From Escherichia coli (GTDB lineage: Bacteria; Pseudomonadota; Gammaproteobacteria; Enterobacterales; Enterobacteriaceae), in NCBI RefSeq assembly GCF_013122565.1, contig NZ_CP053258.1: 64,000 nucleotides of DNA, one strand, 5' to 3'. The notes beneath the pieces are model-generated. The model saw only the letters and a program-made list of their open reading frames with translations. It searched no databases and was not told the DNA's origin. Shown in pieces: positions 1-45,109 of this stretch (position 1 is its first letter; the number at the start of each line of letters is the position of its first letter). Both the position numbers and the translations under genes were made by a program.

Positions 1-188
1 TGGTAAGGAATATTACTTCTGGTTCTCAGTAAAATCCTTTCGTAATACTATGTAATCAAGAAGTTTATGGCTGGTAAAAATAACGTCTTGCATTCACCAA
101 TAATATGTAAATAAACCCATCTATAGATGGTAAAAATAGGTTGTGGCAATTATCATTGCATCATTCCCTTTTCGAATGAGTTTCTATT

Positions 189-3427: not shown

Positions 3428-3506
3428 TTAAAAGTATTTTCCGAGGCTCCTCCTTTCATTTTGTCCCATGTGTTGGGAGGGGCCTTTTTTACCTGGAGAT
3501 ATGACT

Positions 3507-5654: not shown

Positions 5655-5667
5655 TTAGCTCGTACAA

Positions 5668-5696
5668 GGGAAGTGGCTTGCCACTTCCCTTTTTTG
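5668..5696 (+). terminator. Rho-independent terminator after cadA
   Basis: GC-rich hairpin (gggaagtgg...ccacttccc) followed by a T6 run, 14 bp after the cadA stop. Confidence 0.7.
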
Positions 5697-5712
5697 CTCA
5701 TAAGGAGAACAC

Positions 5713-7170: not shown

Positions 7171-7406
7171 CTGTCGTAAAAACAATTGGTTATGAATAAA
7201 TTAACTTTCAGCTTATAACACTAGCAAATCGAGATTAATAAGTCATTTAAACCATTTCGATGGTTATTTATTAGTGATATCAACTTGAGGTAAGCGTTAG
7301 TTTCGATAAGATAAACTGAGTTATTAATAGTCGAGGCAGATAATACAGTGTACCGATCTGTCTCTTTATCTACGCTAAATTGAAAGCTGGATTTAGAGGA
7401 ACCAAA

Positions 7407-8924
7407 ATGTCTGAACAAGAAACACGGGGAGCCAATGAGGCTATTGATTTTAACGATGAACTGAGAAATCGCCGCGAAAAACTGGCGGCACTACGTCAGC
7501 AAGGTGTGGCGTTTCCCAATGATTTTCGCCGCGACCATACCTCTGACCAGTTGCACGAAGAGTTTGATGCGAAGGATAACCAGGAACTGGAATCCTTAAA
7601 CATTGAAGTCTCGGTTGCTGGCCGAATGATGACCCGTCGTATCATGGGGAAAGCCTCCTTTGTAACGTTGCAGGATGTCGGTGGCCGTATTCAACTGTAC
7701 GTCGCACGAGATAGCCTGCCAGAAGGTGTTTATAACGATCAGTTTAAAAAATGGGATCTGGGTGACATTATCGGTGCCCGCGGTACGCTGTTTAAGACGC
7801 AAACGGGTGAGCTTTCCATTCACTGTACTGAGCTGCGCCTGCTGACTAAAGCACTACGTCCTTTACCAGATAAATTCCATGGTCTGCAGGATCAGGAAGT
7901 CCGTTATCGTCAACGTTATCTGGACCTCATCGCTAACGATAAATCCCGTCAAACGTTTGTTGTCCGTTCAAAAATTCTGGCCGCTATCCGCCAGTTCATG
8001 GTCGCGCGCGGCTTTATGGAAGTAGAAACCCCGATGATGCAGGTAATTCCAGGTGGGGCATCTGCTCGCCCGTTTATTACCCATCATAACGCTCTGGATT
8101 TAGATATGTATCTGCGTATCGCGCCGGAGCTGTATCTGAAACGTCTGGTTGTAGGCGGTTTTGAACGGGTATTCGAAATCAACCGTAACTTCCGTAATGA
8201 AGGTATTTCTGTTCGCCATAATCCTGAGTTCACAATGATGGAACTCTACATGGCGTATGCGGATTACCACGATTTGATTGAACTGACAGAGTCACTGTTC
8301 CGCACCCTGGCACAAGAGGTTCTGGGTACCACTAAAGTCACTTATGGCGAGCATGTGTTTGATTTCGGCAAACCGTTTGAAAAACTCACCATGCGCGAAG
8401 CAATCAAAAAATATCGTCCAGAAACCGATATGGCCGACCTGGATAATTTTGATGCTGCTAAAGCATTAGCTGAATCTATCGGAATTACGGTAGAGAAAAG
8501 CTGGGGGCTGGGACGTATTGTCACGGAGATCTTTGATGAAGTGGCAGAAGCACATCTGATTCAGCCAACCTTTATTACGGAATATCCGGCAGAAGTGTCA
8601 CCGCTGGCGCGCCGTAATGATGTTAACCCAGAAATCACCGACCGTTTTGAATTCTTCATCGGTGGTCGTGAAATCGGTAATGGTTTTAGCGAATTAAACG
8701 ACGCAGAAGATCAGGCTGAACGTTTCCAGGAACAGGTTAACGCTAAAGCTGCAGGTGACGACGAAGCCATGTTCTATGACGAAGATTACGTGACTGCGCT
8801 GGAATATGGTCTGCCGCCAACCGCTGGCCTGGGTATTGGCATCGACCGAATGATTATGCTGTTTACTAACAGCCATACTATTCGCGACGTTATTCTCTTC
8901 CCGGCGATGCGCCCACAGAAATAA
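7407..8924 (+). CDS. lysU: Lysyl-tRNA synthetase, inducible isoform
   Basis: ORF 7380..8924; start at MSEQETRG gives 505 aa; class II aaRS motifs and N-terminal OB anticodon-binding domain; position next to the cad locus identifies it as lysU rather than lysS. Confidence 0.9.
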
Positions 8925-8935
8925 ATTTCACTTTA

Positions 8936-8969
8936 ATGAACGAAGCAGTCAGGCGACTGCTTCGTTCAT
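8936..8969. terminator. Inverted repeat between the convergent lysU and ghoT genes, possible bidirectional terminator
   Basis: 15 bp perfect stem (atgaacgaagcagtc / gactgcttcgttcat) with a 4 nt loop; no strong T-tract on the + strand. Confidence 0.4.
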
Positions 8970-9042
8970 CGTTCCGCAAATCCAGTTTTGAGGAGAGACG
9001 CTTCGTTTCACGATAACCAGCGGGTCCACTCAACTACAGCTC

Positions 9043-9216
9043 CTAAAAGAGAGAAAAAAGTAATGCCACGGGCAGACTCATTGGCCAGGTTATTCCGACC
9101 AGGAATGCACTAAGTAAACGAATATGTGTTTTCTCATGTGAGATAAACCAGATAATGACAAAGGATATGTTCACACCAATCACATAAAAAATTAATATTT
9201 TAGAGAATAGCGCCAT
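9043..9216 (-). CDS. ghoT: GhoT, small membrane toxin of the type V toxin-antitoxin pair
   Basis: Not in the ORF track (57 aa, below cutoff); translated by hand on the minus strand: MALFSKILIFYV...LFSLF then stop; hydrophobic two-helix peptide directly downstream of ghoS on the same strand. Confidence 0.75.
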   Translation of the reverse strand: MALFSKILIFYVIGVNISFVIIWFISHEKTHIRLLSAFLVGITWPMSLPVALLFSLF

Positions 9217-9243
9217 TTTTTATGTTCTTCTTATCCTTCCTGG

Positions 9244-9540
9244 CTACTTGTAAAACTGACGGAAATAGTCATCAACTGTCATAATGTTGAGGTCAAAATC
9301 AATATCCGGTAAGTCTAAGCATTTAAGCCTGATTAAATCTTCGATTTCACTTGCGGCTAACGATGTCGTTATTGCGAAGGAATTTTCATTCAATTGTCGT
9401 GGTATCCCATATTCATCAGCCACGATAGAAGAGAAATTCATATCATACATCAATGATCTTAACCTTAAGAACACTGAGGAATAAGATGATGGATAATCAA
9501 AAGAAACAACATAAGTATTGAACTTGTTTTTACCTTCCAT
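9244..9540 (-). CDS. ghoS: GhoS, antitoxin endoribonuclease of the type V toxin-antitoxin pair
   Basis: 98 aa ORF (MEGKNKFNTYVVSFDYPSSY...); immediately upstream of ghoT on the same strand; matches YjdK/GhoS. Confidence 0.8.
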   Translation of the reverse strand: MEGKNKFNTYVVSFDYPSSYSSVFLRLRSLMYDMNFSSIVADEYGIPRQLNENSFAITTSLAASEIEDLIRLKCLDLPDIDFDLNIMTVDDYFRQFYK

Positions 9541-9766
9541 AATATGACTCCTATCAATATTAAACGCTCTGGGGACGCAAAACTTATTAACCCCGATTGA
9601 TGATTCTCATATAGGAGATATTCTTTTTTTTGCTCAGTAAAGGGGATGACTTGGGACAAAAAAACGCTCTCTCTGCCCATTCTTTGTGCATCCCCCTACC
9701 CTTCAGATGCTCTCCTGCATCACTCCGCGGAGAGCATGAAAAATATCGTGAATCTGTACTCTCCCA

Positions 9767-10039
9767 TCAACTGCGAATATCATCATACTCCCGCGTTTTA
9801 TCAAATTCGTGTTTCGCAAATGGACATAATGGGATAATTTTTCGTTTTTCCCGACGCATTTTTTCCACGACTTTCGCAACCAGCTGTTTACCAATCCCTT
9901 GCCCTTTCAGGCTTTCATCGACATCGGTATGTTCGATAATCGCTAAATTCTCTCCAGTCGGCACAAAGACAATTTCAGCGATTTGCTTGCCCTGTTCGTC
10001 ATTAATGTAAAATTTATTGTGGCCTTCGCGTATTTCCAT
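9767..10039 (-). CDS. yjdJ: Small GNAT-family acetyltransferase-like protein
   Basis: 90 aa ORF; position between ghoS and yjdI. Confidence 0.75.
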
Positions 10040-10050
10040 TTTACCCTCGC

Positions 10051-10281
10051 TTATTTATGACGGTATTTCAGCGCGCCGCTCGGGCACGTATCAATCACTT
10101 TAACCACAGTGGCGACGTCGACTTCATCCGGCATGATCCACGGCTTTCGTTTGAGATTAAATAACTTGCCGTTGCCACGTACGCAATTGCCAGAATGCTG
10201 ACATATCGCAGTGTTGAAATAGACATCGATCTTTTCGCCGGTATAACAGCGATAACCCTCGTCCAGTAGCGCCTGATCCAT
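10051..10281 (-). CDS. yjdI: Small cysteine-rich protein of unknown function
   Basis: 76 aa ORF with CxxC...C motifs; conserved position upstream of dcuS. Confidence 0.75.
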
Positions 10282-10461
10282 GACCTTCCCTCTCTCATCA
10301 GTATGGTTTTCACTATAAGCATAGCCCTGGAATCTTCATACAGCACTGGCAGTTTCCGTTGCCAGAGTCTCTTCCCCTATATAGCCAATCATTCTTACTC
10401 CCTTTGAATTACCCGCCTCATCAGAGATAATGCTTAAGAAATTTGTCACACAAGGAAGCTG

Positions 10462-23448: not shown

Positions 23449-24786
23449 ATGTCTTCGGATGCTGATGCTCACAAAGTGGGCTTAATCCCCGTCACCCTGA
23501 TGGTGTCGGGGAATATTATGGGGTCAGGTGTTTTTCTGTTACCTGCAAACCTGGCCTCCACTGGCGGGATTGCCATTTATGGATGGTTGGTGACGATTAT
23601 CGGTGCGCTGGGGCTCTCGATGGTATACGCCAAAATGTCGTTCCTCGACCCAAGTCCTGGTGGTTCTTACGCTTACGCCCGCCGCTGCTTTGGCCCGTTT
23701 CTCGGTTATCAAACCAACGTCCTCTACTGGCTGGCCTGCTGGATCGGCAATATCGCCATGGTGGTCATTGGCGTAGGATATTTAAGTTACTTCTTCCCGA
23801 TTCTGAAAGATCCATTGGTATTAACCATCACCTGCGTCGTGGTGCTGTGGATCTTCGTCCTGCTGAACATTGTCGGTCCGAAAATGATCACCCGTGTGCA
23901 GGCAGTTGCCACCGTGCTGGCGCTGATCCCCATCGTCGGGATTGCCGTATTTGGCTGGTTCTGGTTCCGGGGTGAAACCTATATGGCGGCATGGAACGTC
24001 AGCGGCCTGGGCACCTTCGGTGCAATTCAAAGTACCCTTAACGTTACGCTGTGGTCGTTCATCGGTGTGGAAAGTGCCTCCGTTGCCGCAGGTGTGGTGA
24101 AAAACCCGAAACGCAATGTCCCTATCGCCACCATTGGTGGGGTATTGATTGCCGCCGTTTGCTATGTACTTTCTACCACCGCGATTATGGGGATGATCCC
24201 TAATGCCGCACTGCGCGTTTCTGCTTCGCCATTCGGTGATGCCGCACGGATGGCGTTGGGTGACACCGCTGGGGCCATTGTTTCCTTCTGCGCAGCTGCG
24301 GGTTGCTTAGGTTCACTGGGCGGCTGGACGTTGCTGGCGGGTCAAACGGCGAAAGCCGCTGCCGATGACGGACTGTTCCCACCGATTTTTGCCCGTGTAA
24401 ATAAAGCGGGTACGCCAGTGGCGGGGCTGATTATCGTCGGTATTTTGATGACCATCTTCCAGCTCAGCAGCATTTCACCAAACGCGACCAAAGAGTTCGG
24501 TCTGGTTTCTTCCGTCTCGGTCATCTTTACACTGGTGCCATATCTTTACACCTGTGCGGCGTTACTGCTGCTCGGCCACGGTCACTTTGGTAAAGCACGC
24601 CCGGCATATCTGGCTGTTACTACCATTGCCTTCCTCTACTGCATTTGGGCCGTGGTGGGGTCCGGGGCGAAAGAGGTTATGTGGTCATTTGTCACCCTGA
24701 TGGTCATCACCGCCATGTATGCGCTGAATTACAACCGGCTACATAAAAACCCGTATCCCTTAGATGCACCAATAAGCAAAGATTAA
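23449..24786 (+). CDS. adiC: Arginine/agmatine antiporter (APC family)
   Basis: 445 aa; paralogous in fold to CadB (shared N-terminal GSG motifs). Confidence 0.9.
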
Positions 24787-24810
24787 TTCCCCTTAATCCA
24801 GCAAACATAA

Positions 24811-24850
24811 AAGCCAACCTTAAGAACTTAAGGTTGGCTTAATTTTGCTT
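24811..24850 (+). terminator. Rho-independent terminator after adiC
   Basis: 14 bp stem (aagccaaccttaag / cttaaggttggctt) followed by aattttgcttt. Confidence 0.65.
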
Positions 24851-24889
24851 TGCGAGCATATGCGCACTTTGTTCGATGGAAACACCGTG

Positions 24890-26533
24890 ATGTTGAAGCG
24901 CCTACTAAAAAGACCCTCTTTGAATTTACTCGCCTGGCTATTGTTGGCCGCTTTTTATATCTCTATCTGCCTGAATATTGCCTTTTTTAAACAGGTGTTG
25001 CAGGCGCTGCCGCTGGATTCGCTGCATAACGTACTGGTTTTCTTGTCGATGCCGGTCGTCGCTTTCAGCGTGATTAATATTGTCCTGACACTAAGCTCTT
25101 TCTTATGGCTTAATCGACCGCTGGCCTGCCTGTTTATTCTGGTCGGCGCAGCTGCACAATATTTCATAATGACTTACGGCATCGTCATCGACCGCTCGAT
25201 GATTGCCAATATTATTGATACCACTCCGGCAGAAAGTTATGCGCTGATGACGCCGCAAATGTTATTAACGCTGGGATTCAGCGGCGTGCTTGCTGCGCTG
25301 ATTGCCTGCTGGATAAAAATCAAACCTGCCACCTCGCGTCTGCGCAGTGTTCTTTTCCGTGGAGCCAATATTCTGGTTTCTGTACTGCTGATTTTGCTGG
25401 TCGCCGCACTGTTTTATAAAGACTACGCCTCGTTGTTCCGCAATAACAAAGAGCTGGTGAAATCCTTAAGCCCCTCTAACAGCATTGTTGCCAGCTGGTC
25501 ATGGTACTCCCATCAGCGACTGGCAAATCTGCCGCTGGTGCGAATTGGTGAAGACGCGCACCGCAACCCGTTAATGCAGAACGAAAAACGTAAAAATTTG
25601 ACCATCCTGATTGTCGGCGAAACCTCGCGGGCGGAGAACTTCTCCCTCAACGGCTACCCGCGTGAAACTAACCCGCGGCTGGCGAAAGATAACGTGGTCT
25701 ATTTCCCTAATACCGCATCTTGCGGCACGGCAACGGCAGTTTCAGTACCGTGCATGTTCTCGGATATGCCGCGTGAGCATTACAAAGAAGAGCTGGCACA
25801 GCACCAGGAAGGCGTGCTGGATATCATTCAGCGAGCGGGCATCAACGTGCTGTGGAATGACAACGATGGCGGCTGTAAAGGTGCCTGCGACCGCGTGCCT
25901 CACCAGAACGTCACCGCGCTGAATCTGCCTGGTCAGTGCATCAACGGCGAATGCTATGACGAAGTGCTGTTCCACGGGCTGGAAGAGTACATCAATAACC
26001 TGCAGGGTGATGGCGTGATTGTCTTACACACCATCGGCAGCCACGGTCCGACCTATTACAACCGCTATCCGCCGCAGTTCAGGAAATTTACCCCAACCTG
26101 CGACACCAATGAGATCCAGACCTGTACCAAAGAGCAACTGGTGAACACTTACGACAACACGCTGGTTTACGTCGACTATATTGTTGATAAAGCGATTAAT
26201 CTGCTGAAAGAACATCAGGATAAATTTACCACCAGCCTGGTTTATCTTTCTGACCACGGTGAATCGTTAGGTGAAAATGGCATCTATCTGCACGGTCTGC
26301 CTTATGCCATCGCCCCGGATAGCCAAAAACAGGTGCCGATGCTGCTGTGGCTGTCGGAGGATTATCAAAAACGGTATCAGGTTGACCAGAACTGCCTGCA
26401 AAAACAGGCGCAAACGCAACACTATTCACAAGACAATTTATTCTCCACGCTATTGGGATTAACTGGCGTTGAGACGAAGTATTACCAGGCTGCGGATGAT
26501 ATTCTGCAAACTTGCAGGAGAGTGAGTGAATGA
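24890..26533 (+). CDS. eptA: Lipid A phosphoethanolamine transferase
   Basis: ORF 24845..26533 opens on TTG; start placed at the ATG ([11 protein letters not shown]) giving 547 aa; N-terminal TM bundle plus periplasmic sulfatase-like domain; stop overlaps basR. Confidence 0.85.
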
Positions 26534-27198
26534 AAATTCTGATTGTTGAAGACGATACGCTGTTATTGCAGGGACTGATTCTGGCGGCGCAAACCGAAGG
26601 CTACGCGTGCGATGGCGTGACAACCGCGCGGATGGCGGAACAAAGCCTTGAGGCCGGTCATTACAGCCTGGTAGTACTGGATTTAGGGTTACCCGACGAA
26701 GATGGACTGCATTTTCTCGCCCGTATCCGGCAGAAAAAATACACCCTGCCGGTACTAATCCTCACCGCTCGCGATACGCTGACCGACAAAATCGCCGGAC
26801 TGGATGTCGGTGCCGACGACTATCTGGTGAAGCCTTTTGCGCTGGAAGAGTTACACGCCCGTATCCGCGCCCTGCTACGACGCCATAATAATCAGGGCGA
26901 AAGTGAGCTGATTGTTGGCAATCTGACGCTTAATATGGGTCGCCGTCAGGTATGGATGGGCGGTGAAGAGTTGATTCTGACGCCCAAAGAATATGCTCTG
27001 CTGTCACGGTTAATGCTCAAAGCAGGCAGTCCGGTGCATCGGGAAATTCTCTACAACGACATCTATAACTGGGACAATGAACCCTCGACCAACACCCTGG
27101 AAGTGCATATCCACAATCTGCGCGACAAAGTGGGCAAAGCCCGTATCCGCACCGTGCGCGGATTTGGCTATATGCTGGTCGCGAATGAGGAAAACTAA
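26530..27198 (+). CDS. basR: OmpR-family response regulator BasR/PmrA
   Basis: 222 aa; receiver plus winged-helix domains; 4 bp overlap with eptA. Confidence 0.9.
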
Positions 27199-27207
27199 TT
27201 GAATCTG

Positions 27208-28299
27208 ATGCGTTTTCTGCGCCGACCAATATCGCTGCGCCAACGGCTGATATTGACCATCGGGGCCATTTTGTTGGTGTTTGAGCTGATCAGCGTCTTC
27301 TGGCTATGGCATGAAAGTACCGAGCAGATTCAGCTGTTTGAGCAGGCGCTACGCGACAATCGCAACAACGATCGCCACATCATGCGTGAGATCCGCGAGG
27401 CGGTCGCCAGCCTGATCGTCCCCGGCGTCTTTATGGTCAGCCTGACGCTATTTATCTGCTATCAGGCGGTACGCCGCATCACCCGCCCGCTGGCGGAGCT
27501 GCAAAAAGAGCTGGAAGCGCGCACCGCCGACAACTTAACGCCCATTGCCATTCACAGCGCCACCCTCGAAATCGAAGCGGTGGTTTCGGCGTTGAACGAT
27601 CTGGTCAGTCGCCTGACCAGCACGCTGGATAACGAAAGGTTGTTTACCGCTGACGTCGCGCACGAACTGCGAACGCCACTGGCGGGGGTGCGTTTGCATC
27701 TGGAACTGCTGGCGAAAACGCATCACATTGATGTAGCACCGTTAGTGGCACGGCTTGATCAGATGATGGAGAGCGTCTCCCAGCTGCTGCAACTGGCGCG
27801 TGCCGGACAGTCATTTTCTTCCGGTAATTATCAACATGTAAAACTGCTGGAAGATGTCATTCTCCCCTCGTATGACGAACTCAGTACCATGCTCGACCAG
27901 CGCCAGCAAACCCTGCTATTGCCAGAGAGCGCCGCCGACATCACCGTTCAGGGTGATGCAACCCTGCTGCGGATGTTATTGCGAAACCTGGTAGAAAACG
28001 CCCATCGTTACAGCCCGCAAGGCAGCAACATTATGATTAAGCTGCAAGAAGATGGCGGAGCGGTCATGGCTGTTGAAGATGAAGGTCCGGGTATTGATGA
28101 GAGTAAATGCGGGGAGTTGAGTAAAGCATTTGTACGTATGGACAGCCGTTATGGCGGGATTGGTCTGGGGTTAAGTATTGTCAGCCGCATTACACAGTTG
28201 CATCACGGGCAGTTTTTCCTGCAAAACCGGCAAGAGACTTCCGGCACGCGGGCCTGGGTACGGCTGAAGAAAGATCAAAACGTGACAAACCAGATATAA
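27208..28299 (+). CDS. basS: Sensor histidine kinase BasS/PmrB
   Basis: ORF 27199..28299 opens on TTG; ATG at 27208 (MRFLRRP) gives 363 aa; two TM segments, HAMP, H-box (AHELRTP), ATPase domain. Confidence 0.85.
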   Translation: MRFLRRPISLRQRLILTIGAILLVFELISVFWLWHESTEQIQLFEQALRDNRNNDRHIMREIREAVASLIVPGVFMVSLTLFICYQAVRRITRPLAELQKELEARTADNLTPIAIHSATLEIEAVVSALNDLVSRLTSTLDNERLFTADVAHELRTPLAGVRLHLELLAKTHHIDVAPLVARLDQMMESVSQLLQLARAGQSFSSGNYQHVKLLEDVILPSYDELSTMLDQRQQTLLLPESAADITVQGDATLLRMLLRNLVENAHRYSPQGSNIMIKLQEDGGAVMAVEDEGPGIDESKCGELSKAFVRMDSRYGGIGLGLSIVSRITQLHHGQFFLQNRQETSGTRAWVRLKKDQNVTNQI

Positions 28300-28435
28300 A
28301 GAAAGCTGCTGACCACCAGCACGCTGAACACGGTAGTTAAACTTTCATAAACACGGTTTTTCATTGCACTCTCCTCCGTTAACCTGGAGGAGAGTATGCG
28401 CGTCAGAGATTAAGTGAACCTTAAGAGTTCAATTG

Positions 28436-35279: not shown

Positions 35280-35609
35280 TCATCGCCCATACTCATCTTC
35301 CATTCTCCGCTCTTCATCTTCTAGCTGCCGACGCTCCTGATCAAGCTGGCGCTGGCGATCGTCCAGTTGCCTGCGGCGATCTTCAAACTGGCGGCGGCGA
35401 TCGTCATATTGTCTGCGACGATCGTCGCTCACTTCACGCTGCCAGCTGTCGTCGCGCGAATCTTCATAGTCTCGCCCACGGTCAGGGTTATAAGCGTCGT
35501 TAATCGCCTGCTGAATATTGCCAATGGTGTCGTCGATAATATCGGCCTGGGCCGGAACGGTGGACAGCGTGAGCAGGGTGAAAAGAAAGAGCGTGGAGTG
35601 GTGTTTCAT
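35280..35609 (-). CDS. yjdP: Small secreted low-complexity protein YjdP
   Basis: 109 aa; N-terminal signal peptide, then an Arg/Asp/Gln/Glu-rich repetitive tail. Confidence 0.7.
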   Translation of the reverse strand: MKHHSTLFLFTLLTLSTVPAQADIIDDTIGNIQQAINDAYNPDRGRDYEDSRDDSWQREVSDDRRRQYDDRRRQFEDRRRQLDDRQRQLDQERRQLEDEERRMEDEYGR

Positions 35610-35677
35610 AAACTCAGCCTCGCAACAAAGTTAATACAAGGTAGGCAAAGGTACCTGTCGCGAGTAGCGGAGGATTC

Positions 35678-37939
35678 TCAATTCTCTTGCCCCAGAACCT
35701 GCGCCAGCTGCGCGCGGGTAAAAGGTTTGCGCAACAGCGCTACGTCTGGCAGCGCGGGGTTATGGCTGGGGCGTAAATCCTGGCCGCTGATGAGTAGCAG
35801 CGTCAGATGCGGGTAAAGTTCGCGGGCCGCATTGACCACTTCTGCGCCGCTCATGCCGCCTGGGAGCATTAAATCGCTGATAAAAATATCGATTTCCGCT
35901 GATGCCGCCAGCAGGTCCAGCGCCTGTTCGCCGCTGCTCGCTTCCAGCGTCAAATAGCCCAGCAGGTGTAACTGCTCGCAGATGGTCTGGCGCACCGCGG
36001 CTTCATCTTCCAGCACGAGCACCAGTTTATCGCCGCTGACGGCTGTCTGTTCTACCGCCGCTGGCGATAGGTTTTTCGCCGCCGTCAGCGCGCGGGGAAG
36101 CTGTAATCTGACCGTTGTCCCCTGCCCCGGCGCGCTTTCAATTTCTACACGCCCACCGGACTGGCGCACAAAACCATAGACCATCGACAAGCCCAGCCCG
36201 CTGCCACTCCCCGTCTGTTTGGTGGTAAAGAACGGCTCAAAGACCTGGCTTTTCACCGCCTGCGACATACCGCTGCCATGATCGATGACCTCCAGCGCCA
36301 CCATGTCCTGACGCTGCCCACTGCTGCGGGTAACGCGCTGATTCCAGGTACGAATTTTGATAATTCCCGTCAGCCCTTCCATCGCATCGCGGGCGTTCAT
36401 CACCAGATTGATGATGGCATTTTCCAGCTGGCTGACATCAATCCACGCGGGCCATGCCGGAGACTGCGCTTCAATCTCAATCGTCAGCGTCGCCGGTAAG
36501 GAGTGGCGCATTAATTCGCTTAACTCTTCCAGCAGTGTTTTTAGCTCAACGGCTTGCGGATGTAAGGACTGCTTGCGGGAAAACGCCAGTAGTCGCTGGG
36601 TCAGTAGCGCGCCACGTTCGGCAGCTTGCTGCGCCCGCTGTATTCGCGGCGCGTCGGGTGAGTCCGTGTTCACCAGTTCCAGGCTGCCAATAATTACCGC
36701 CAACAGATTATTAAAATCATGGGCCAGCCCACCCGTCAATTGCCCAACCGCTTTCAGTTTCTGGCTGTGTAATAGCGCCTCTTCCAGCCCCTGCCTCTCG
36801 GTTTGGGCAATCTCCATCTGCGTGGTTTTCTCTTTCAACAGCCTTGACGTTCGTTCGAGTGACGCGGTATTGCGGGCAAAAACGTTAAAGGCGCGCGCCA
36901 GTTCACCCAACTCATCGCGCCGCTGTAACGCCGGAAAAGTGACGTCCGCTTCGCCGTGCGCCAGGCGGCTCATAGCGCGGGAAATCGCCGTCAGGTTAGA
37001 GCCGAGATTGCGATAGATATACCAACCTGCAAATGCGGTGATCACCACCGCTAACAGAGCGAAAATCATGATCACCCTCTCGCCGGAGCGCAAATCCTGG
37101 TAACTTTGCGCCACCCGCTGACCGGAGAGCATCGCCACCTGTTCGGCGTAACGGTTGATGTCGCCATTAAGGATCGCCACCAGCGCTTTGATGTGAAACA
37201 TATACCAGCTGATTGCCAGATCGCTTTGCTCCAGAGCGGCAGAAAGCGGCGCGAGTTTACGCAGTTCATCATTGAAATCATTGAGTAGCGTATTAACCAA
37301 TGGCGTATCGCTGTGGGTCGGCAACGCAGACATTACCCCGACCAGTTGATGAATAATCGCCTGCGGCGCGGGGGTGGCAATAGCGGCAACAATCAGTCGG
37401 TTCATCTCGTTAAGCAAAATATCATCTTGCGCATTAGTGACTTTTTGCAGATGCCGCAGATAACTTAAGTTTTGATACAGCGAACTTAACAGCGCGTTGC
37501 GCTCCAGATGTCGCCTTTGCCCGCGCTCCAACATTCCGCCGACGCTGGTTTGCAGTTCGTTGCTACGCGTGATGATGCGCGCCACCAGCCCGGCCTCCTG
37601 CTGCGCTAACGGCGCGTTCGCCAGTTGTGCAAGCGAGCTTTTTAATGCCCGCTGTGTCTCCTGCAATCGCTCGGCTTCGCCTTTATATTCCAGCGCTCCC
37701 ACCACTTGTGACAATCGCACCGCCGCCGTCGCCACATTTGCCGTGTCGCGCGCCAGATTCAGGCTGCCGGTCATATCATCCACCGTTTGCTGCTGTACCA
37801 GCTCCTGCATCTGGCTGGCATGACGAAAGCCCATTACCGCCACGCCGCTGACCATCAGCGTCACCGCTACCACCAGCAAATTCAAAAGCAGCAATCGCCC
37901 GCGCGCGCTGGCAAAAAAGTGACGTCCGGGGTGCGCCAT
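35678..37939 (-). CDS. Hybrid sensor histidine kinase with periplasmic domain and C-terminal receiver
   Basis: ORF 35678..38035; start placed at the in-frame ATG (MAHPGRHFF) with a GGAG ribosome-binding site, about 753 aa; TM1, ~280 aa periplasmic domain, TM2, HAMP, H-box (GGLAHDFNNLL), ATPase domain, receiver domain (LVLVLEDE...ISDLMLPGGMSG); no HPt domain seen. Confidence 0.8.
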   Translation of the reverse strand: MAHPGRHFFASARGRLLLLNLLVVAVTLMVSGVAVMGFRHASQMQELVQQQTVDDMTGSLNLARDTANVATAAVRLSQVVGALEYKGEAERLQETQRALKSSLAQLANAPLAQQEAGLVARIITRSNELQTSVGGMLERGQRRHLERNALLSSLYQNLSYLRHLQKVTNAQDDILLNEMNRLIVAAIATPAPQAIIHQLVGVMSALPTHSDTPLVNTLLNDFNDELRKLAPLSAALEQSDLAISWYMFHIKALVAILNGDINRYAEQVAMLSGQRVAQSYQDLRSGERVIMIFALLAVVITAFAGWYIYRNLGSNLTAISRAMSRLAHGEADVTFPALQRRDELGELARAFNVFARNTASLERTSRLLKEKTTQMEIAQTERQGLEEALLHSQKLKAVGQLTGGLAHDFNNLLAVIIGSLELVNTDSPDAPRIQRAQQAAERGALLTQRLLAFSRKQSLHPQAVELKTLLEELSELMRHSLPATLTIEIEAQSPAWPAWIDVSQLENAIINLVMNARDAMEGLTGIIKIRTWNQRVTRSSGQRQDMVALEVIDHGSGMSQAVKSQVFEPFFTTKQTGSGSGLGLSMVYGFVRQSGGRVEIESAPGQGTTVRLQLPRALTAAKNLSPAAVEQTAVSGDKLVLVLEDEAAVRQTICEQLHLLGYLTLEASSGEQALDLLAASAEIDIFISDLMLPGGMSGAEVVNAARELYPHLTLLLISGQDLRPSHNPALPDVALLRKPFTRAQLAQVLGQEN

Positions 37940-38052
37940 ATCACGCTCCGTGAAGAAAAATCGCAATATGACAAATATGAACGGCTTCTGACATTTTGCA
38001 TTTACTTTCCTGTGATGGAGTGCTGATATCGACAACCTCGCAGGAGTCCACC

Positions 38053-39573
38053 ATGAACAGCACGCCGGTTCTGGAGATGCGCAATATTGCCAAAGCTTTT
38101 GGCAAATTTTATGCGCTCAAAGGGGTGGATTTGACGGTCTACCCAGGAGAGATCCACGCCCTGATGGGGGAAAACGGCGCCGGAAAAAGCACGCTGATGA
38201 AGGTGCTGGCGGGGGCGTATACCGCCACCAGCGGCGAGATCCTGATAGACGGCAAGCCCTTTCACATTCGCACGCCGAAAGATGCCTTAAGCGCCGGTAT
38301 TACCCTGATTTATCAGGAGATGCAGCTGGCACCCAATTTGACGGTGGCAGAAAATATTTTTCTCGGCAGCGAGCTTTCCCACGGCGGGCTGGTGCAGCGT
38401 AAAGAGATGCTGGTGCAGGCGCAAAAAGTGATCGACCGCCTCGGCGCGCAGTTTAACGCCAGCGATAAGGTCATGACGCTGACCATTGCCGAGCAACAAC
38501 AGGTCGAAATCGCCCGGGCGCTGCATCGCAACAGCCGCATTCTGGTGATGGACGAACCCACCGCAGCCCTCTCCTCGCGTGAAACTCACCGCCTGTTTGA
38601 ATTAATCATGCGGCTGCGCGATGAAGGGATGGCGATTATCTACATTAGCCACCGCATGGCGGAAGTGTATGAGCTTTCCGATCGCGTCAGCGTGCTGCGC
38701 GACGGGCAATACGTTGGCAGCCTGACCCGCGACAACCTCAACGCCGGGGAGCTGGTGCGGATGATGGTCGGCAGGCCACTGAGCGATCTGTTCAATAAAG
38801 AGCGCGATATCCCGCTCGGTAAAGCCCGCCTGAACGTTCACCACCTGACCGACGGCGGCAAAGTCCAGCCGAGTAGCCTGCTGGTGCGTTCCGGCGAAAT
38901 TGTTGGCCTCGCCGGACTGGTGGGTGCCGGACGTTCCGAACTGGCGCAGTTGATCTTCGGCGTGCGCAAAGCGACAGGCGGAATGATTGAAGTCGATGGC
39001 GAACCGGTGGTGATCCACTCCCCGCGCGAAGCCATCGATCTTGGCATTGGCTTTCTCACCGAAAACCGCAAAGAACAAGGCTTATTCCTTGAAATGGCGG
39101 CAGCCGAAAACATCACCATGGCAACCCTGGAGCGCGACGCCCGCTGGGGAATGCTCAATCGCAAAAAAGCGCAAACCATTTCCGATGACGCCATTAAGTT
39201 GCTCAACATTCGCGTGCCTCATGCCCAGGTGCGCGCGGGCGGGCTTTCCGGCGGCAATCAGCAAAAACTGTTGATCTCCCGCTGGGTGGCGATTGGCCCG
39301 CGCATTTTACTGCTCGATGAACCCACCCGCGGCGTGGACGTTGGCGCAAAAAGCGAGATCTACCGGATCATGAACGAGATGGCACGCAAGGGCGTGGCGA
39401 TCCTGATGATCTCCAGCGAACTGCCGGAGATAGTGGGAATGAGCGATCGCGTCTATGTGATGCGTGAAGGCAGCATTGCCGGTGAGTTAAACGGCAAAAA
39501 CATCACCCAGGAAAACATTATGACCTTAGCGACCGGAGTTAACGACGCCCATTCCCAGGCGGTGACCTCATGA
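38053..39573 (+). CDS. Sugar ABC transporter ATP-binding protein with two nucleotide-binding domains
   Basis: ORF 37996..39573; start at MNSTPVLEM (AGGAG ribosome-binding site), about 506 aa; two Walker A motifs (GENGAGKST and GLVGAGRSE) and two signature motifs (LSGGNQQK), as in the RbsA/AlsA/MglA family. Confidence 0.85.
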
Positions 39574-40544
39574 CGACCTCTGCAAAAACCTCTGCCAAAA
39601 AAATGCTGATGAGCGATCTGATGCAAACGGTCGGCATCTTGCCCATTTTGATTCTGATCGTGGCGGTATTTGGCTTTATCGCGCCAAACTTTTTTAACGA
39701 AAGCAACCTGCTAAATATTACCCGCCAGGCGTCGATCAACATTGTGCTGGCGGCGGGAATGACCTTCATCATTTTGACTGGCGGGATCGATCTTTCTGTA
39801 GGTTCAATTCTCGGCACCACGGCGGTGGCGGCGATGGTCGTCTCCCTTAGCCCTGAGTTCGCCATGCTGTCGATCCCGGCGGCGCTGATGCTCGGTCTGC
39901 TGCTGGGGCTGTTCAACGGCGCGCTGGTGGCCTTTGCCGGATTGCCGCCGTTTATCGTCACGCTTGGCACCTATACGGCGCTGCGCGGGGCGGCGTATCT
40001 GCTGGCGGACGGCACCACGGTTATCAACTCCAACATTAATTTCGAGTGGATAGGCAATAACTATCTCGGGCCGGTCCCGTGGCTGGTGGTGATTGCGCTG
40101 GCGGTGATCGTGGTGTGCTGGTTTATTCTGCGCCGCACCACGCTTGGTGTTCATATCTACGCCGTCGGCGGCAATATGCAGGCGGCGCGTCTTACCGGCA
40201 TTAAGGTCTGGCTGGTGCTGCTGTTTGTTTATGGCATGAGCGGCCTGCTTTCAGGGCTTGGCGGGATTATGAGCGCCTCGCGGCTGTACAGCGCCAACGG
40301 CAACTTAGGCATGGGTTACGAACTGGACGCCATTGCGGCGGTGATCCTCGGCGGCACCAGTTTTGTCGGCGGCATCGGCACCATCACCGGCACGCTGGTC
40401 GGGGCGCTAATTATCGCCACGCTCAACAATGGCATGACCTTAATGGGCGTCTCTTACTTCTGGCAACTGGTGATCAAAGGGGCGGTGATCATCATTGCGG
40501 TGCTGATCGACAAATACCGTACCCGACACCATCAAAGTGCATAA
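39570..40544 (+). CDS. Sugar ABC transporter permease
   Basis: 324 aa, about 10 TM segments; start overlaps the ATPase stop. Confidence 0.85.
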
Positions 40545-40562
40545 ACACATGAGGAATACAGC

Positions 40563-41504
40563 ATGAGATTGAAGCCCTTAGTGACCGCGCTCTGTGCAGG
40601 CGCGCTGCTGGCCGCAGCACCGTTCGCCCAAGCGAAAGAACTGAAATCGATAGGCGTAACGGTGGGCGATCTGGCGAACCCGTTCTTCGTGCAGATCACC
40701 AAAGGCGCGGAGCTGGAAGCACGCAAACTGGCAGGCGATAACGTCAAAGTGACGCTGGTTTCCAGCGGCTACGATCTGGGCCAGCAGGTGTCGCAGATAG
40801 ACAACTTTATCGCCGCTAACGTCGATATGATTATCCTCAACGCTGCCGATTCAAAAGGGATCGGCCCGGCGGTGAAACGGGCGAAAGATGCCGGGATCGT
40901 GGTCGTCGCGGTTGACGTGGCGGCAGAAGGTGCCGATGCCACTATCACTTCCGATAACACCCAGGCAGGCGAAATGGCCTGTAAATACATCACCGATCGC
41001 CTGAAAGGCAAAGGCAATGTGGTGATCATCAACGGCCCGCCGGTGTCCGCCGTGCAAAACCGCGTTGAAGGATGCCAGACTGAATTTAAACGCCATCCTG
41101 ACATCAAGGTACTCTCTGACAACCAGAACGCGAAAGGCAGTCGTGAAGGCGGGCTGGAGGTAATGACCGGACTGCTGGCGGCAAATCCGAAGATCGACGG
41201 TGTATTTGCGATTAACGATCCGACAGCGATCGGTGCCGATCTGGCAGCAAAACAGGCGCAACGTAACGAGTTCTTTATTGTCGGCGTAGACGGAAGCCCG
41301 GACGCCGAAGAGGCGCTAAAACGTGAGAACTCGTTGTTTGTCGCCACTCCAGCACAAGATCCCCAGGTGATGGCAGCAAAAGCGGTTGAGATCGGTTATG
41401 ACATTTTGCAGGGCAAACCCGCGCCGAAAGAGCCGGTGCTGATCCCGGTGACGATGATCGATAAAAACAACGTCGGCAATTACAAAGGCTGGACGGTGAA
41501 ATAA
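40563..41504 (+). CDS. Periplasmic sugar-binding protein (RbsB/AlsB-like)
   Basis: 313 aa; signal peptide (MRLKPLVTALCAGALLAAAPFAQA), type I periplasmic binding fold. Confidence 0.85.
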   Translation: MRLKPLVTALCAGALLAAAPFAQAKELKSIGVTVGDLANPFFVQITKGAELEARKLAGDNVKVTLVSSGYDLGQQVSQIDNFIAANVDMIILNAADSKGIGPAVKRAKDAGIVVVAVDVAAEGADATITSDNTQAGEMACKYITDRLKGKGNVVIINGPPVSAVQNRVEGCQTEFKRHPDIKVLSDNQNAKGSREGGLEVMTGLLAANPKIDGVFAINDPTAIGADLAAKQAQRNEFFIVGVDGSPDAEEALKRENSLFVATPAQDPQVMAAKAVEIGYDILQGKPAPKEPVLIPVTMIDKNNVGNYKGWTVK

Positions 41505-41558
41505 GCCCACACGCCGGGCGGCGCAGCTGCCCGGTCACCGCTAAGGAGAACGCTTTCG

Positions 41559-42242
41559 ATGAAACGCTCCGCTATAAACGACATTCTCGGCCATACACGG
41601 CAATTCTTTTCGCAACATGACGTACATCTGCCGCCCTTTGCCAGTTTCTCGCCTGCTCAATGGCAGCAGCTCGACACCGCCGCGTGGGAGGAGGTTTTTG
41701 ATCTCAAACTCGGCTGGGATGTTACCGCTTTTGGTGGCAACAACTTTGCAGCACAGGGGCTGACGCTGTTTACCCTACGTAACGGCTCAGCAAAAGGAAT
41801 GCCGTATGTGAAATGTTACGCCGAGAAGATCATGCATGTGCGCGATGCGCAGGTCACGCCAATGCATTTTCACTGGCGTAAGCGTGAGGACATTATCAAT
41901 CGCGGCGGCGGTAATTTAATTGTTGAACTGTGGAATACCGATAGTAACGAGCAAACGGCTGATAGTGACGTTACGGTGGTGATAGACGGCTGCCGCCAGA
42001 AACATACTGCAGGCACTCAGTTGCGCCTGTCTCCCGGCGAAAGTATCTGCCTGCCGCCCGGCCTGTATCACAGCTTTTGGGCGGAAACCGGTTTTGGCGA
42101 TGTACTGGTTGGCGAAGTCTCTTCTGTCAATGACGACGACCACGATAACCACTTTTTACAGCCACTGGACCGCTACAACCTGATTGACGAAGACGAACCT
42201 GCACAGTTGGTGTTGTGTAACGAATACCGCCAGTTCCGCTGA
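41559..42242 (+). CDS. Cupin-fold sugar isomerase, D-lyxose/D-mannose isomerase-like
   Basis: 227 aa; cupin metal-binding pattern (HxH...E...H: HFHWRKREDIINRGGG...LYHSF); operon context with transporter, kinase and aldolase. Confidence 0.65.
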   Translation: MKRSAINDILGHTRQFFSQHDVHLPPFASFSPAQWQQLDTAAWEEVFDLKLGWDVTAFGGNNFAAQGLTLFTLRNGSAKGMPYVKCYAEKIMHVRDAQVTPMHFHWRKREDIINRGGGNLIVELWNTDSNEQTADSDVTVVIDGCRQKHTAGTQLRLSPGESICLPPGLYHSFWAETGFGDVLVGEVSSVNDDDHDNHFLQPLDRYNLIDEDEPAQLVLCNEYRQFR

Positions 42243-42256
42243 ATAAGGAGAACGTT

Positions 42257-43117
42257 ATGTCATTGATTTCTCTCGCTGAAGGGCTGGCTCATGCCCGCGA
42301 ACATCGCTATGCGTTAGGTGCGTTTAATGTACTGGACTCGCACTTTTTACGCGCCTTGTTTGCTGCTGCCAGACAAGAACGTTCGCCCTTTATTATCAAC
42401 ATTGCCGAAGTACATTATAAATATATCTCGCTGGAATCCCTGGTCGAGACAGTGAAATTTGAAGCGGCGCGCCATGCCATTCCGGTGGTATTAAATCTCG
42501 ATCACGGGCTGCATTTTGAGTCGGTGGTGCAAGCGTTGCGGCTGGGATTCAGCTCGGTAATGTTTGATGGCTCCACGCTGGGGTATGAAGAAAATGTCCG
42601 CCAAACGCGGGAAGTGGTGAAAATGTGCCATGCCGTTGGCGTATCGGTAGAAGCTGAACTGGGCGCGGTGGGTGGCGACGAAGGCGGTGCGCTCTATGGT
42701 CATGCCGATGAATCCCTGTTTACCGATCCGCAACTGGCGCGTGATTTTGTCGACCGTACCGGCATTGACGCGCTGGCCGTGGCGATTGGCAATGCACACG
42801 GCAAATATCGCGGCGAACCGAAACTCGATTTCCTACGCCTCGACGCTATCCGCCAGCAGGCTGCTATCCCGCTGGTATTACACGGCGGCTCAGGGATTAG
42901 CGATGCCGATTTCCGCCGCGCCATCGAACGGGGTATCCACAAAATCAATTTCTACACTGGCATGTCGCAAGCGGCGCTGGCTGCCGTTGAGGCCCGAATG
43001 GCGCACCGTCAGCCGATGTATGATGAGTTTGCCGAGTTACTACTAGCAGTGGAAGCCGCCATCAGCGATACGGTTGCACAACAGATGCGTATTTTCGGCA
43101 GTGCGGGGCAGGCATGA
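42257..43117 (+). CDS. Class II ketose-bisphosphate aldolase family protein
   Basis: 286 aa; FBA class II / tagatose-bisphosphate aldolase family (LDHG, HGGSG motifs). Confidence 0.75.
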   Translation: MSLISLAEGLAHAREHRYALGAFNVLDSHFLRALFAAARQERSPFIINIAEVHYKYISLESLVETVKFEAARHAIPVVLNLDHGLHFESVVQALRLGFSSVMFDGSTLGYEENVRQTREVVKMCHAVGVSVEAELGAVGGDEGGALYGHADESLFTDPQLARDFVDRTGIDALAVAIGNAHGKYRGEPKLDFLRLDAIRQQAAIPLVLHGGSGISDADFRRAIERGIHKINFYTGMSQAALAAVEARMAHRQPMYDEFAELLLAVEAAISDTVAQQMRIFGSAGQA

Positions 43118-44115
43118 TGGAACGTAGAGGGATTATCGCCGCAGGCAATATGTTGGTTGACCACGTCCATCAGATTATCCAGTGGCCAGAGCGCGGCTGG
43201 CTGGCGGAGATTACCCACAGCGAACGCTCCACCGGCGGCGCGCCGCTTAATGTCCTGCTGACACTGGCGAAAATGCGCACCGGGTTGCCGTTACAGGCGG
43301 TTGGGCTAATCGGTCAGGACAGCGACGGCGATTACATCATGGCGATGCTTGAGCAATATCACGTCAATCGTCAGCATGTGCAGCGCACTACCTTTGCCCC
43401 GACGTCGATGTCACAGGTGATGACCGACCCAAGCGGGCAGCGGACGTTTTTCCATTCGCCGGGTGCAAACAGACTTTTGGATCTTCCGGCGTTCGATCAG
43501 CTCGATAACACCATGAAGATTTTCCATCTCGGCTATTTACTGTTGCTCGACAGCCTGGATATGCCGGACGATGTTTACGGCACCCGTAGCGCACGACTGC
43601 TGGCGCAAATGCGTGATACTGGCTTTGAAACCTCACTCGACCTGGTCTCCCGCAAGGGCGATCCGCGTTATCAGCCGCTGGTGCTGCCCGCGTTGCGCCA
43701 TCTGGATTATCTGGTAATTAACGAACTGGAGGCCGGGGAGTTTAGTGGGCTGGAAATTCGGTTACCCAACGGCGAACCGCATATCGCGCATATTGCTGCC
43801 GCCGCGCGTGAACTGTTAGATGCGGGCGTGCGCCAGCGTGTGGTGATCCACTGCCCGGAAGGGGCCTGGGGAGAAACCCCGGAACAGGGCGGCGTGTGGA
43901 TCCCTTCGCAAAAGTTAGAACAACGGGAAATTATCGGCAGCGTCGGTGCGGGCGATGCATTTTGTGCCGGATTTTTATATGGCTGCCATGAGTGCTGGGC
44001 GCTAACTGAGAGCATAAAACTGGCACATGCCTGCGCGCGGGCAAGCCTGTTATGCGCTAATGCCATCGACGGGGCAAAAACGCTGGAAGAGTTGCAAACA
44101 GAAATGTCAGATTAA
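43114..44115 (+). CDS. PfkB-family carbohydrate kinase
   Basis: 333 aa; C-terminal GAGDAF motif of the ribokinase/PfkB family; start overlaps the aldolase stop. Confidence 0.75.
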   Translation: MMERRGIIAAGNMLVDHVHQIIQWPERGWLAEITHSERSTGGAPLNVLLTLAKMRTGLPLQAVGLIGQDSDGDYIMAMLEQYHVNRQHVQRTTFAPTSMSQVMTDPSGQRTFFHSPGANRLLDLPAFDQLDNTMKIFHLGYLLLLDSLDMPDDVYGTRSARLLAQMRDTGFETSLDLVSRKGDPRYQPLVLPALRHLDYLVINELEAGEFSGLEIRLPNGEPHIAHIAAAARELLDAGVRQRVVIHCPEGAWGETPEQGGVWIPSQKLEQREIIGSVGAGDAFCAGFLYGCHECWALTESIKLAHACARASLLCANAIDGAKTLEELQTEMSD

Positions 44116-44819
44116 TGCACGTCGGCAGCGAAGACATACCCCAGGCCGCGCAGAGTTTTAATCAACATCGGCTGATGCGGATTGAGTTCGATTTTGCGTC
44201 GTAAGCGCATGATTAAGACGTCGATGGTGCGATCAAACACTTCCACGCTATCGCTATGAGTGAACGCCAGCAGCTGCTCGCGGCTTAATACCCGACGGGC
44301 ATTTTGTGCCAGGGCCAGTAACAAGCCATATTCGCCCTGAGTCAGCTCGACATGTTGTTGTAGCGGACTATGCAGTTGACAGCGAATGGTATCGAGATAC
44401 CAGCCATTGAATGACAGCCCGGCGTTTTTCTCCTCGTTAACCGCCAGCGCGCCAACCCGTCGCAACACCGCTTTCAGTCGTGCGACCACCACCCGCGGGG
44501 TGAACGGTTTGCAGATGTAATCATCCGCGCCCATTTCCAGCCCGACCACCACATCAGACTCACTGCCCATGCCGGTCAACATCACCACCGGCAATGTCGG
44601 ACGCAGTTTCTGGATTTGCTGCAATATCCTCAGGCCGTTGGTATCGGGTAGCATCATATCCAGCACCACCAGCGCAATGTCAGGATCGCCCTCAATACGC
44701 AATATGGCCTCCTGTCCGGTATGGCAGACTGAAACCGTAAAGACATGTTCACTTAACACGTCCTGCAGCAGTGCGCAGATAGCCGTGTCATCATCCACCA
44801 CCAGCACGACGGGTTTCAT
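44112..44819 (-). CDS. OmpR-family response regulator
   Basis: ORF 44112..44837; start placed at MKPVVLVVDDD (GGAG ribosome-binding site), 235 aa; receiver domain plus winged-helix output (TLRGLGYVF); 3' end overlaps the convergent kinase gene by 4 bp. Confidence 0.8.
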   Translation of the reverse strand: MKPVVLVVDDDTAICALLQDVLSEHVFTVSVCHTGQEAILRIEGDPDIALVVLDMMLPDTNGLRILQQIQKLRPTLPVVMLTGMGSESDVVVGLEMGADDYICKPFTPRVVVARLKAVLRRVGALAVNEEKNAGLSFNGWYLDTIRCQLHSPLQQHVELTQGEYGLLLALAQNARRVLSREQLLAFTHSDSVEVFDRTIDVLIMRLRRKIELNPHQPMLIKTLRGLGYVFAADVH

Positions 44820-45109
44820 GGTTACACTCCGCATCATTCATCTGATTAATCATTGTGCGTACTTCTTGTCGAAGTGAAAGCTGAAAGTAATATAAATAAT
44901 AAAAATATAAGTCAGGTCACATTATTGATGATAGTAATAAATATGCCGTACTTTTCCCTCTTCAGCACAAATGCCTAATAAAATGGCGCGTTCCGCTCAC
45001 ACTTCCGCTTATTAAAGTCGCAAATTCCCAATTATGATAACCCCAGCTTTAAATGACGTATTTTGCATGGATTACATATTTACGACATAAATGATAAATG
45101 GAGATTTAT

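Follow-up and report, generated by a model that had tools for sequence, protein, structure and literature searches.

The eptA-basR-basS locus of an Escherichia coli chromosome carries natural alleles and no confirmed activating pmrAB mutation

Introduction

The closest annotated counterpart of the locus studied here is eptA-basR-basS-pmrR of E. coli K-12 MG1655 (b4114, b4113, b4112 and b4703). According to established knowledge of the PmrAB system, BasS would sense signals such as Fe3+, Al3+ or mild acid and phosphorylate BasR at D51, and phosphorylated BasR would in turn bind PmrA boxes upstream of eptA and pmrR. EptA would then place phosphoethanolamine on a lipid A phosphate while PmrR, by inhibiting LpxT, would favor this modification; the expected outcome is a less negative outer surface to which polymyxin binds more weakly. 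EptA has the same enzyme fold and chemistry as MCR-1 to MCR-13.

We analyzed this locus within a stretch of 64,000 nucleotides of E. coli DNA (contig NZ_CP053258.1), hereafter the window. The locus is identical to that of K-12 MG1655 in gene order, in gene lengths, in the overlaps of eptA with basR and of pmrR with basS, in both PmrA boxes and in its promoter regions. K-12 differs from the window, however, by six residues in the three operon proteins and by two in PmrR.

Results

Organization of the locus

The initial annotation had described an intact eptA-basR-basS (pmrCAB) polymyxin-resistance locus, and the open reading frames, annotated relatives and matches to Pfam and NCBIfam models all uphold that description. 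A fourth gene of the locus, pmrR, was absent from the earlier account. The features are as follows.

24811..24840, + strand: hairpin with a 13-bp stem between adiC and eptA, a terminator-like site on both strands
24827..24843, + strand: predicted PmrA (BasR) box CTTAAGGTTGGCTTAAT, a motif match 47 nt upstream of the eptA ATG
24890..26533, + strand: eptA (pmrC), lipid A phosphoethanolamine transferase, 547 aa, intact in the open reading frame list
26530..27198, + strand: basR (pmrA), OmpR-family response regulator, 222 aa, from open reading frame, Pfam and NCBIfam evidence
27199 or 27208..28299, + strand: basS (pmrB), sensor histidine kinase, from open reading frame, Pfam and NCBIfam evidence
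28275..28364, − strand: pmrR, membrane peptide of 29 aa with the annotation LpxT activity modulator, MKNRVYESLTTVFSVLVVSSFLYIWFVTF, NF033224
28409..28425, − strand: second predicted PmrA box CTTAAGGTTCACTTAAT, a motif match 44 nt upstream of the pmrR ATG

The 4-bp overlap that had been proposed between eptA and basR is present, as an ATGA common to the stop codon of the former and the start codon of the latter. The companion claim, that basS starts 1 bp past basR, holds for the TTG at 27199, which comes immediately after the basR stop codon (TAA, ending at 27198) and is the RefSeq/PGAP start of pmrB, giving 366 aa; it does not hold for the ATG at 27208, the annotated K-12 start, which gives the 363-aa form used for residue numbering in the literature. 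The sequence GAGG lies at 27187-27190, 8 nt ahead of the TTG, and in the alignment an N-terminus of the form M-[NKS]-L-x-R/Q-F/Y is common to BasS orthologues. The 4-bp and 0-bp junctions suggest that translational coupling of the three genes is plausible.

EptA, BasR and BasS are full length, with no indels relative to K-12 and with 1, 1 and 4 residues changed, respectively. The locus belongs to the core genome: at least 80% of it is held by 5,411 of 5,426 complete E. coli genomes. A tblastn search of the window for another eptA or mcr-like gene found none. Upstream of the locus, the cadCBA genes are collinear with E. coli at 99.3% identity over window positions 1-17190, and the adi genes are full-length open reading frames, features that weigh against Shigella as the source.

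The small gene pmrR runs toward basS from the opposite strand and shares 25 nt with the 3′ end of that gene. Its product scores 68.5 bits with the NF033224 equivalog model (cut-off 30) and had no match in the Pfam copy scanned; K-12, C11 and NCTC9699 have the gene annotated at the corresponding position.

Both PmrA boxes were located with the direct repeat YTTAAK-N5-YTTAAK, which we take to be the consensus that the Salmonella and E. coli literature gives for PmrA boxes; the 64 kb of the window contain this repeat twice, whereas chance alone would give 0.10 occurrences. The sequence from 24667 to 25119 is identical to K-12, as is the region of the second box. The upstream box is overlapped by the hairpin at 24811..24840, which is probably the adiC terminator. 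A scan of the locus for sigma-70 promoters returned 3 sites, compared with 3.6 expected, and is therefore uninformative.

Assignment of the proteins to families

EptA is assigned to the NF008619 equivalog with 1086 bits (cut-off 660) and matches both the N-terminal membrane domain EptA_B_N (PF08019) and the C-terminal sulfatase-fold domain Sulfatase (PF00884). Its motifs GET (E244), CGT (T280), HTIGSH, DH (455-456) and YLH (H468) align with identical motifs in Neisseria EptA (5FGN), and on that structure E244, T280, D455, H456 and H468 presumably serve as the catalytic threonine nucleophile and zinc ligands. By its domains, equivalog score and catalytic and zinc-binding motifs, the protein therefore classifies as a predicted lipid A phosphoethanolamine transferase. 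It also matches the NF028537 domain model and aligns with the MCR-1 and MCR-2 structures, but it reaches none of the MCR family cut-offs: the highest-scoring MCR-type model gives 514 bits where 1,075 are required, and no other exceeds 483, with cut-offs of at least 1,100 (for MCR-3, 474 against 1,225). Unlike the MCR genes, eptA here is chromosomal and syntenic, and predicted to be under PmrA control.

BasR is assigned to the NF007928 equivalog (390 bits, cut-off 330) and matches the receiver (PF00072) and winged-helix Trans_reg_C (PF00486) domains, with the phospho-acceptor D51 in place. Translations of basR from C11, NCTC9699 and E203449 (annotated as WP_000697915.1) give the identical protein. 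BasS is assigned to NF008025 (644 bits, cut-off 314) and has the Pfam domains HAMP, HisKA and HATPase_c, of which HAMP, at 24.3 bits, is slightly below its 25-bit cut-off; the H-box histidine, H152, lies within HELRTPL. Public proteins that match exactly are all labelled E. coli.

Nearest sequences

The nearest sequence found was the draft assembly GCA_018578885.1 (DAEGCK010000020.1, locus L005), with 99.88% identity over 9.1 kb. Its basS has no nucleotide differences from that of the window and its BasR, BasS and PmrR are identical, whereas its eptA has a 9-bp in-frame deletion (window 24999-25007) that the eptA of the window lacks. The best match among the 5,426 complete E. coli genomes has 99.2% identity over the locus and positions 1-24889, and 98.2% over 28300-53000.

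Variants relative to K-12

The initial annotation had flagged the locus for a comparison with the K-12 proteins. Across the 3.4 kb of eptA, basR and basS, 33 nucleotides differ from K-12 MG1655 (about 99% identity), corresponding to 27 synonymous and 6 non-synonymous differences: D348G in EptA, S29G in BasR, and H2R, D283G, Y358N and A360T in BasS. PmrR differs from its K-12 counterpart by A27V and Y29F. Identity of BasR and BasS to the wild type had been named as the finding that would refute the observation, and both proteins differ; such identity is nevertheless a poor standard, because K-12 has the minority allele at several sites.

Allele frequencies were estimated in the 5,426 complete genomes by megablast with 55-mers, each seed word covering the variant base, so that the counts are lower bounds. 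BasR S29G was found in at least 5,038 genomes (at least 93%), which leaves the K-12 state, S29, at most about 7%; BasS D283G occurs in at least 3,674 (at least 68%) and H2R in at least 2,442 (at least 45%). For Y358N we relied on the published frequency of about 53% of E. coli (PMC11451601), since the window has a neighboring synonymous difference at 28278 that would upset the logic of the 55-mer seeds. Position 2 is R in most of the BasS orthologues aligned, and position 283 varies freely among them (D, N, Q, K, E or P). At S29, H2 and D283, then, it is the K-12 residue that departs from the commoner state in E. coli or in orthologues.

A360T is rare. The base that encodes it is present in 2 of the 5,426 complete genomes, NCTC9699 and E203449, the only complete RefSeq E. 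coli genomes that have it. Their PmrB (WP_162535313.1) has N at residue 235, where the window has T (363-aa numbering), and their basS is 12 nucleotides apart from that of the window; the PmrR variant is the same. Among public contigs, at least 36 encode the exact BasS protein of the window. The same single base change produces A360T in BasS and A27V in PmrR together.

Comparison with published colistin-resistance mutations

The E. coli table of PMC8829026 lists 15 substitutions in BasR and 30 in BasS, and we checked each of them. Only S29G, D283G and Y358N occur here, and that table lists all three as 'not confirmed'. The hot spots, among them G53, R81, L10, P94, T156, V161 and G206, are wild type throughout, and the N-terminal BasS regions in which deletions have been reported (6-12 and 27-45) are both intact. 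The confirmed activating changes are G53A and L105P in PmrA and, in PmrB, Δ6-11, L10P/R, G19E, Δ27-45, G206D and an extra HAMP domain. None of these is found in the pmrAB genes of the window: no listed position departs from wild type, neither deletion region is missing and BasS has its length of 363 aa.

Discussion

The six substitutions are standing natural polymorphisms, and none has been experimentally confirmed as a resistance mutation. Because the alleles are natural and no activating mutation is present, we read the locus, with a probability of about 0.9, as the conserved chromosomal eptA-basR-basS operon with convergent pmrR; on this reading, regulation should be normal and inducible, and chromosomal colistin resistance is not expected. 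This colistin phenotype is one that we infer for the locus itself; other determinants of colistin resistance, among them mcr plasmids, phoPQ, mgrB and arn, lie outside the window.

Could S29G, D283G and Y358N be true resistance determinants, and the locus thus be rated colistin resistant? All three stand in the PMC8829026 tables, some of them from isolates with an MIC of 8 to over 32, and many genome surveys report pmrB_Y358N as a colistin-resistance determinant; indeed, it is flagged by 'a common bioinformatic tool' (PMC11451601). This reading, the least credible of those weighed here, is extremely unlikely. Beyond their unconfirmed status, the three substitutions, together with H2R, are found in colistin-susceptible isolates with an MIC of 0.25 µg/mL (PMC8844364), and in more than 16,000 genomes Y358N follows phylogroup as a marker, without association to a higher MIC (PMC11451601). 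Furthermore, S29G and D283G are at frequencies far exceeding any plausible prevalence of colistin resistance. For A360T the published susceptibility data leave room for an effect, as the substitution is rare and no searchable paper mentions it, in a pmrB or a colistin context; alone or with H2R, D283G and Y358N, it might shift the kinase/phosphatase balance of BasS toward constitutive BasRS activity and chromosomal colistin resistance. We regard this as extremely unlikely. Residue 360 lies beyond HATPase_c, which ends at 356, in a six-residue C-terminal tail (358-363) that is missing from the aligned PmrB proteins of Citrobacter, Salmonella and Intestinirhabdus, whereas the activating changes in PMC8829026 fall mostly in the N-terminus, the TM, HAMP and HisKA regions and G206. 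A360T is also carried on at least 4 basS nucleotide haplotypes, 7-12 nt apart, which argues for an old polymorphism and against recent selection. A different change at the same residue, A360V, was found in a susceptible isolate with an MIC of 0.25 (PMC8844364), and strains with A360V do not over-express eptA or arnB (bioRxiv 10.1101/2020.08.06.240812). A360T is probably neutral.

The overlap of the two genes raises the further idea that it is PmrR A27V and Y29F that matter, by altering the inhibition of LpxT and so tuning lipid A phosphorylation against phosphoethanolamine modification. Residues 358 and 360 of BasS and residues 29 and 27 of PmrR are encoded by shared bases, and while other genera do not conserve the BasS tail, PmrR forms an equivalog family that the variant matches over its full length. 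However, A to V and Y to F are conservative changes at the extreme C-terminus of the peptide, and Y29F, which goes with Y358N, is accordingly carried by roughly half of E. coli; we therefore consider an effect of this kind very improbable. It is very improbable, too, that in the few lineages carrying BasS A360T with PmrR A27V this pair of changes shifts the basal level of lipid A modification and the tolerance to polymyxin; such an effect, if real, would act through BasS output or through PmrR inhibition of LpxT.

The reading as a conserved operon with natural alleles makes the locus an already known, textbook core-genome system, in which nothing points to resistance or to new biology. Its significance lies in the interpretation of genomes. 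Anyone comparing this locus naively with K-12, or consulting a published list or a tool, would score S29G, D283G and Y358N as mutations for colistin resistance; allele frequencies and the literature identify them as lineage markers, and they call for caution when such variants are read from E. coli genomes.

An intact eptA-basR-basS-pmrR locus

The initial annotation reported an eptA-basR-basS polymyxin-resistance locus that is present and intact, and this is borne out by the open reading frames, the Pfam domains, the NCBIfam equivalog scores and the absence of any indel in EptA, BasR or BasS relative to K-12 MG1655. The three genes are co-directional on the plus strand (ORF list); pmrR, which overlaps the 3′ end of basS, was overlooked in that annotation.

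Features of the locus (gene lengths of eptA and basR from the ORF list; bits are NCBIfam equivalog scores)
24827-24843, plus: predicted PmrA box, consensus match, 47 nt 5′ of the eptA ATG
24890-26533, plus: eptA (pmrC), 547 aa; Pfam EptA_B_N, Sulfatase; 1086 bits (cut-off 660)
26530-27198, plus: basR (pmrA), 222 aa; Pfam Response_reg, Trans_reg_C; 390 bits (cut-off 330)
27199 (TTG) or 27208 (ATG) to 28299, plus: basS (pmrB), 366 or 363 aa; Pfam HAMP, HisKA, HATPase_c; 644 bits (cut-off 314)
28275-28364, minus: pmrR, 29 aa, convergent with basS and overlapping its last 25 nt; PmrR equivalog, 68.5 bits (cut-off 30)
28409-28425, minus: predicted PmrA box, consensus match, 44 nt 5′ of the pmrR ATG

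The gene order, adiA-adiY-adiC-eptA-basR-basS-pmrR-proP-rdcB-crfC, is that of K-12 in the opposite orientation. The locus is part of the core genome: 5,411 of the 5,426 complete E. coli genomes have 80% or more of it, and its location is almost always chromosomal. The E244, T280, D455/H456 and H468 motifs of EptA align with their counterparts in Neisseria EptA (5FGN), and none of the NCBIfam MCR family models scored this protein near its own cut-off. BasR retains D51, and BasS retains H152 within HELRTPL.

The 4-bp overlap of eptA and basR was read correctly: a single ATGA carries the stop of the first gene and the start of the second. The claim that basS begins immediately after basR depends on the start codon: it holds for the TTG at 27199, which directly adjoins the basR stop (TAA, ending at 27198) and is the RefSeq/PGAP start (366 aa, as in strain C11), and fails for the ATG at 27208 annotated in K-12 (363 aa). 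A GAGG at 27187-27190, 8 nt 5′ of the TTG, and the N-terminus M-[NKS]-L-x-R/Q-F/Y common to aligned PmrB orthologues favour TTG as the probable start. BasS residues are nevertheless numbered here on the 363-aa form, as in the literature.

For the PmrA box we took the consensus to be YTTAAK-N5-YTTAAK (Salmonella/E. coli). Exactly two matches occur in the 64-kb window, against 0.10 expected by chance, and because they sit 5′ of eptA and pmrR the locus can be viewed as a pair of converging units, both with a predicted box in front. Both promoter regions are identical to those of K-12. The eptA box lies in the 3′ arm of a 13-bp-stem hairpin (24811-24840) that resembles the adiC terminator; across 24811-24843 the K-12 sequence is identical.

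Comparison with K-12 and published resistance mutations

BasR and BasS had been flagged for comparison with K-12 and with published mutation lists; when this was run, the differences proved to be natural polymorphisms only. These are D348G in EptA, S29G in BasR, and H2R, D283G, Y358N and A360T in BasS. The codon differences (27 synonymous, 6 non-synonymous) are as would be expected of natural divergence under purifying selection. The full set in the E. coli PmrA/PmrB tables of a FEMS review (PMC8829026), 15 substitutions in BasR and 30 in BasS, was tested by script, and only S29G, D283G and Y358N were present, each graded there as 'not confirmed'. All hot spots were wild type, both in BasR (G15, S39, G53, A80, R81, L105 and G144) and in BasS (L10, L14, G19, C84, T92, R93, P94, A118, E121, E123, T147, T156, A159, G160, V161, E166, G206, Y315 and V351), and BasS segments 6-12 and 27-45, which are published deletion regions, were retained.

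Allele frequencies were estimated by megablast with 55-nt queries carrying the variant base centrally and 28-nt seed words; since each seed word must include that base, the counts are lower bounds. Among the 5,426 complete genomes, the variant base was found in at least 5,038 for S29G (93%), 2,442 for H2R (45%) and 3,674 for D283G (68%). BasR and EptA sequences identical to those of the window are each present on 1,000 or more public contigs. When PmrB was aligned with its orthologues in E. fergusonii, Citrobacter, Salmonella and Intestinirhabdus, most orthologues had R at position 2, so that H2 of K-12 is the unusual state, and position 283 proved freely variable, taking D, N, Q, K, E or P. 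At EptA 348, K-12 has D, the window G and E. coli strain NCTC9699 S; the residue aligned there in Neisseria EptA is E. In pig isolates, S29G, H2R, D283G and Y358N were found both in mcr-positive resistant strains and in susceptible ones with a colistin MIC of 0.25 µg/mL, and were concluded to be without impact (PMC8844364). A survey of more than 16,000 genomes found Y358N in 95% or more of the isolates from phylogroups B1 and C, 83.7% of phylogroup E (NCBI) and 7,795 of 14,700 random assemblies, with no link to higher MIC; an earlier association was termed possibly spurious (PMC11451601). This evidence says that the four substitutions are not meaningful for resistance.

The BasS tail and its overlap with pmrR

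A360T is the sole uncommon change in the locus: its base was found in 2 of the 5,426 complete genomes (0.04%), NCTC9699 and E203449 (Mali), and the searchable literature held no mention of it with pmrB or colistin. The exact BasS protein is on at least 36 public contigs. Its ACA codon occurs on at least four basS haplotypes 7-12 nt apart (among loci carrying the codon, window/L005, L003/L006, L004 and L007/L008), a pattern that fits a long-standing polymorphism moved among backgrounds and not recent selection by colistin. The residue lies past HATPase_c, which ends at residue 356 (Pfam), and activating PmrB mutations map mostly to the N-terminus, TM, HAMP and HisKA, and to G206 (PMC8829026 table). 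A360V, at the same residue, was reported in an isolate with an MIC of 0.25 (PMC8844364) and in strains without up-regulation of eptA or arnB (bioRxiv 10.1101/2020.08.06.240812). Together, the tail position, haplotype spread, A360V data and mutation map argue that A360T is probably neutral for kinase signalling.

The six-residue tail around position 360 differs in sequence in E. fergusonii and has no counterpart in the PmrB proteins aligned from Citrobacter, Salmonella and Intestinirhabdus. Read on opposite strands, the single base change of Y358N is also PmrR Y29F and that of A360T is also PmrR A27V, both conservative. Because BasS 358-363 is missing in the other genera, pmrR rather than basS may constrain these bases.

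Relatives and neighbouring regions

The best complete E. coli genome reaches at most 99.2% identity over the locus and likewise over 25 kb upstream, which makes this a poorly sampled lineage; downstream the best match is 98.2%. The closest sequence found, draft assembly GCA_018578885.1 (L005), is 99.88% identical over 9.1 kb with an identical basS, whereas its eptA has a 9-bp in-frame deletion (window 24999-25007; three codons near residue 37) that the window lacks.

Upstream, melB is missing and yjdF (16567-17217) runs up to melA (17214-18569, minus), meeting it at its 3′ end; as 1,264 of the 5,426 complete genomes cover this junction (17190-17214), the absence is a common structural polymorphism. 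The interval from phnO/yjdP to yjcS, occupied in K-12 by als/rpiB/phn genes, here contains an accessory block (35300-45000) with a sugar ABC transporter, D-lyxose/D-mannose isomerase, aldolase, kinase, response regulator and a hybrid sensor kinase (35678-38035, minus) that is one long ORF here and frameshifted in strain VE-T9. Coverage of 28300-53000 reaches 80% or more in just 155 of the 5,426 complete genomes. At 52809-54488 (plus), where fdhF aligns, the ORF finder gives only a 559-aa ORF; fdhF encodes ~715 aa and contains an in-frame UGA read as selenocysteine, and this would account for the short ORF without a defect.

Implications for polymyxin resistance

By the established mechanism of the PmrAB system, BasS would phosphorylate BasR, and BasR~P, acting at the PmrA boxes, would switch on both eptA-basRS and pmrR. 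EptA would then add phosphoethanolamine to lipid A while PmrR restrains LpxT, and both effects would lessen polymyxin binding. With its natural alleles the system should be inducible, not constitutive. A residual uncertainty of a few per cent attaches to a possible effect of the A360T/PmrR A27V variant and to resistance determinants beyond the window. The comparison yields natural polymorphisms only in an ordinary eptA-basRS locus, a known system that the initial annotation identified correctly.
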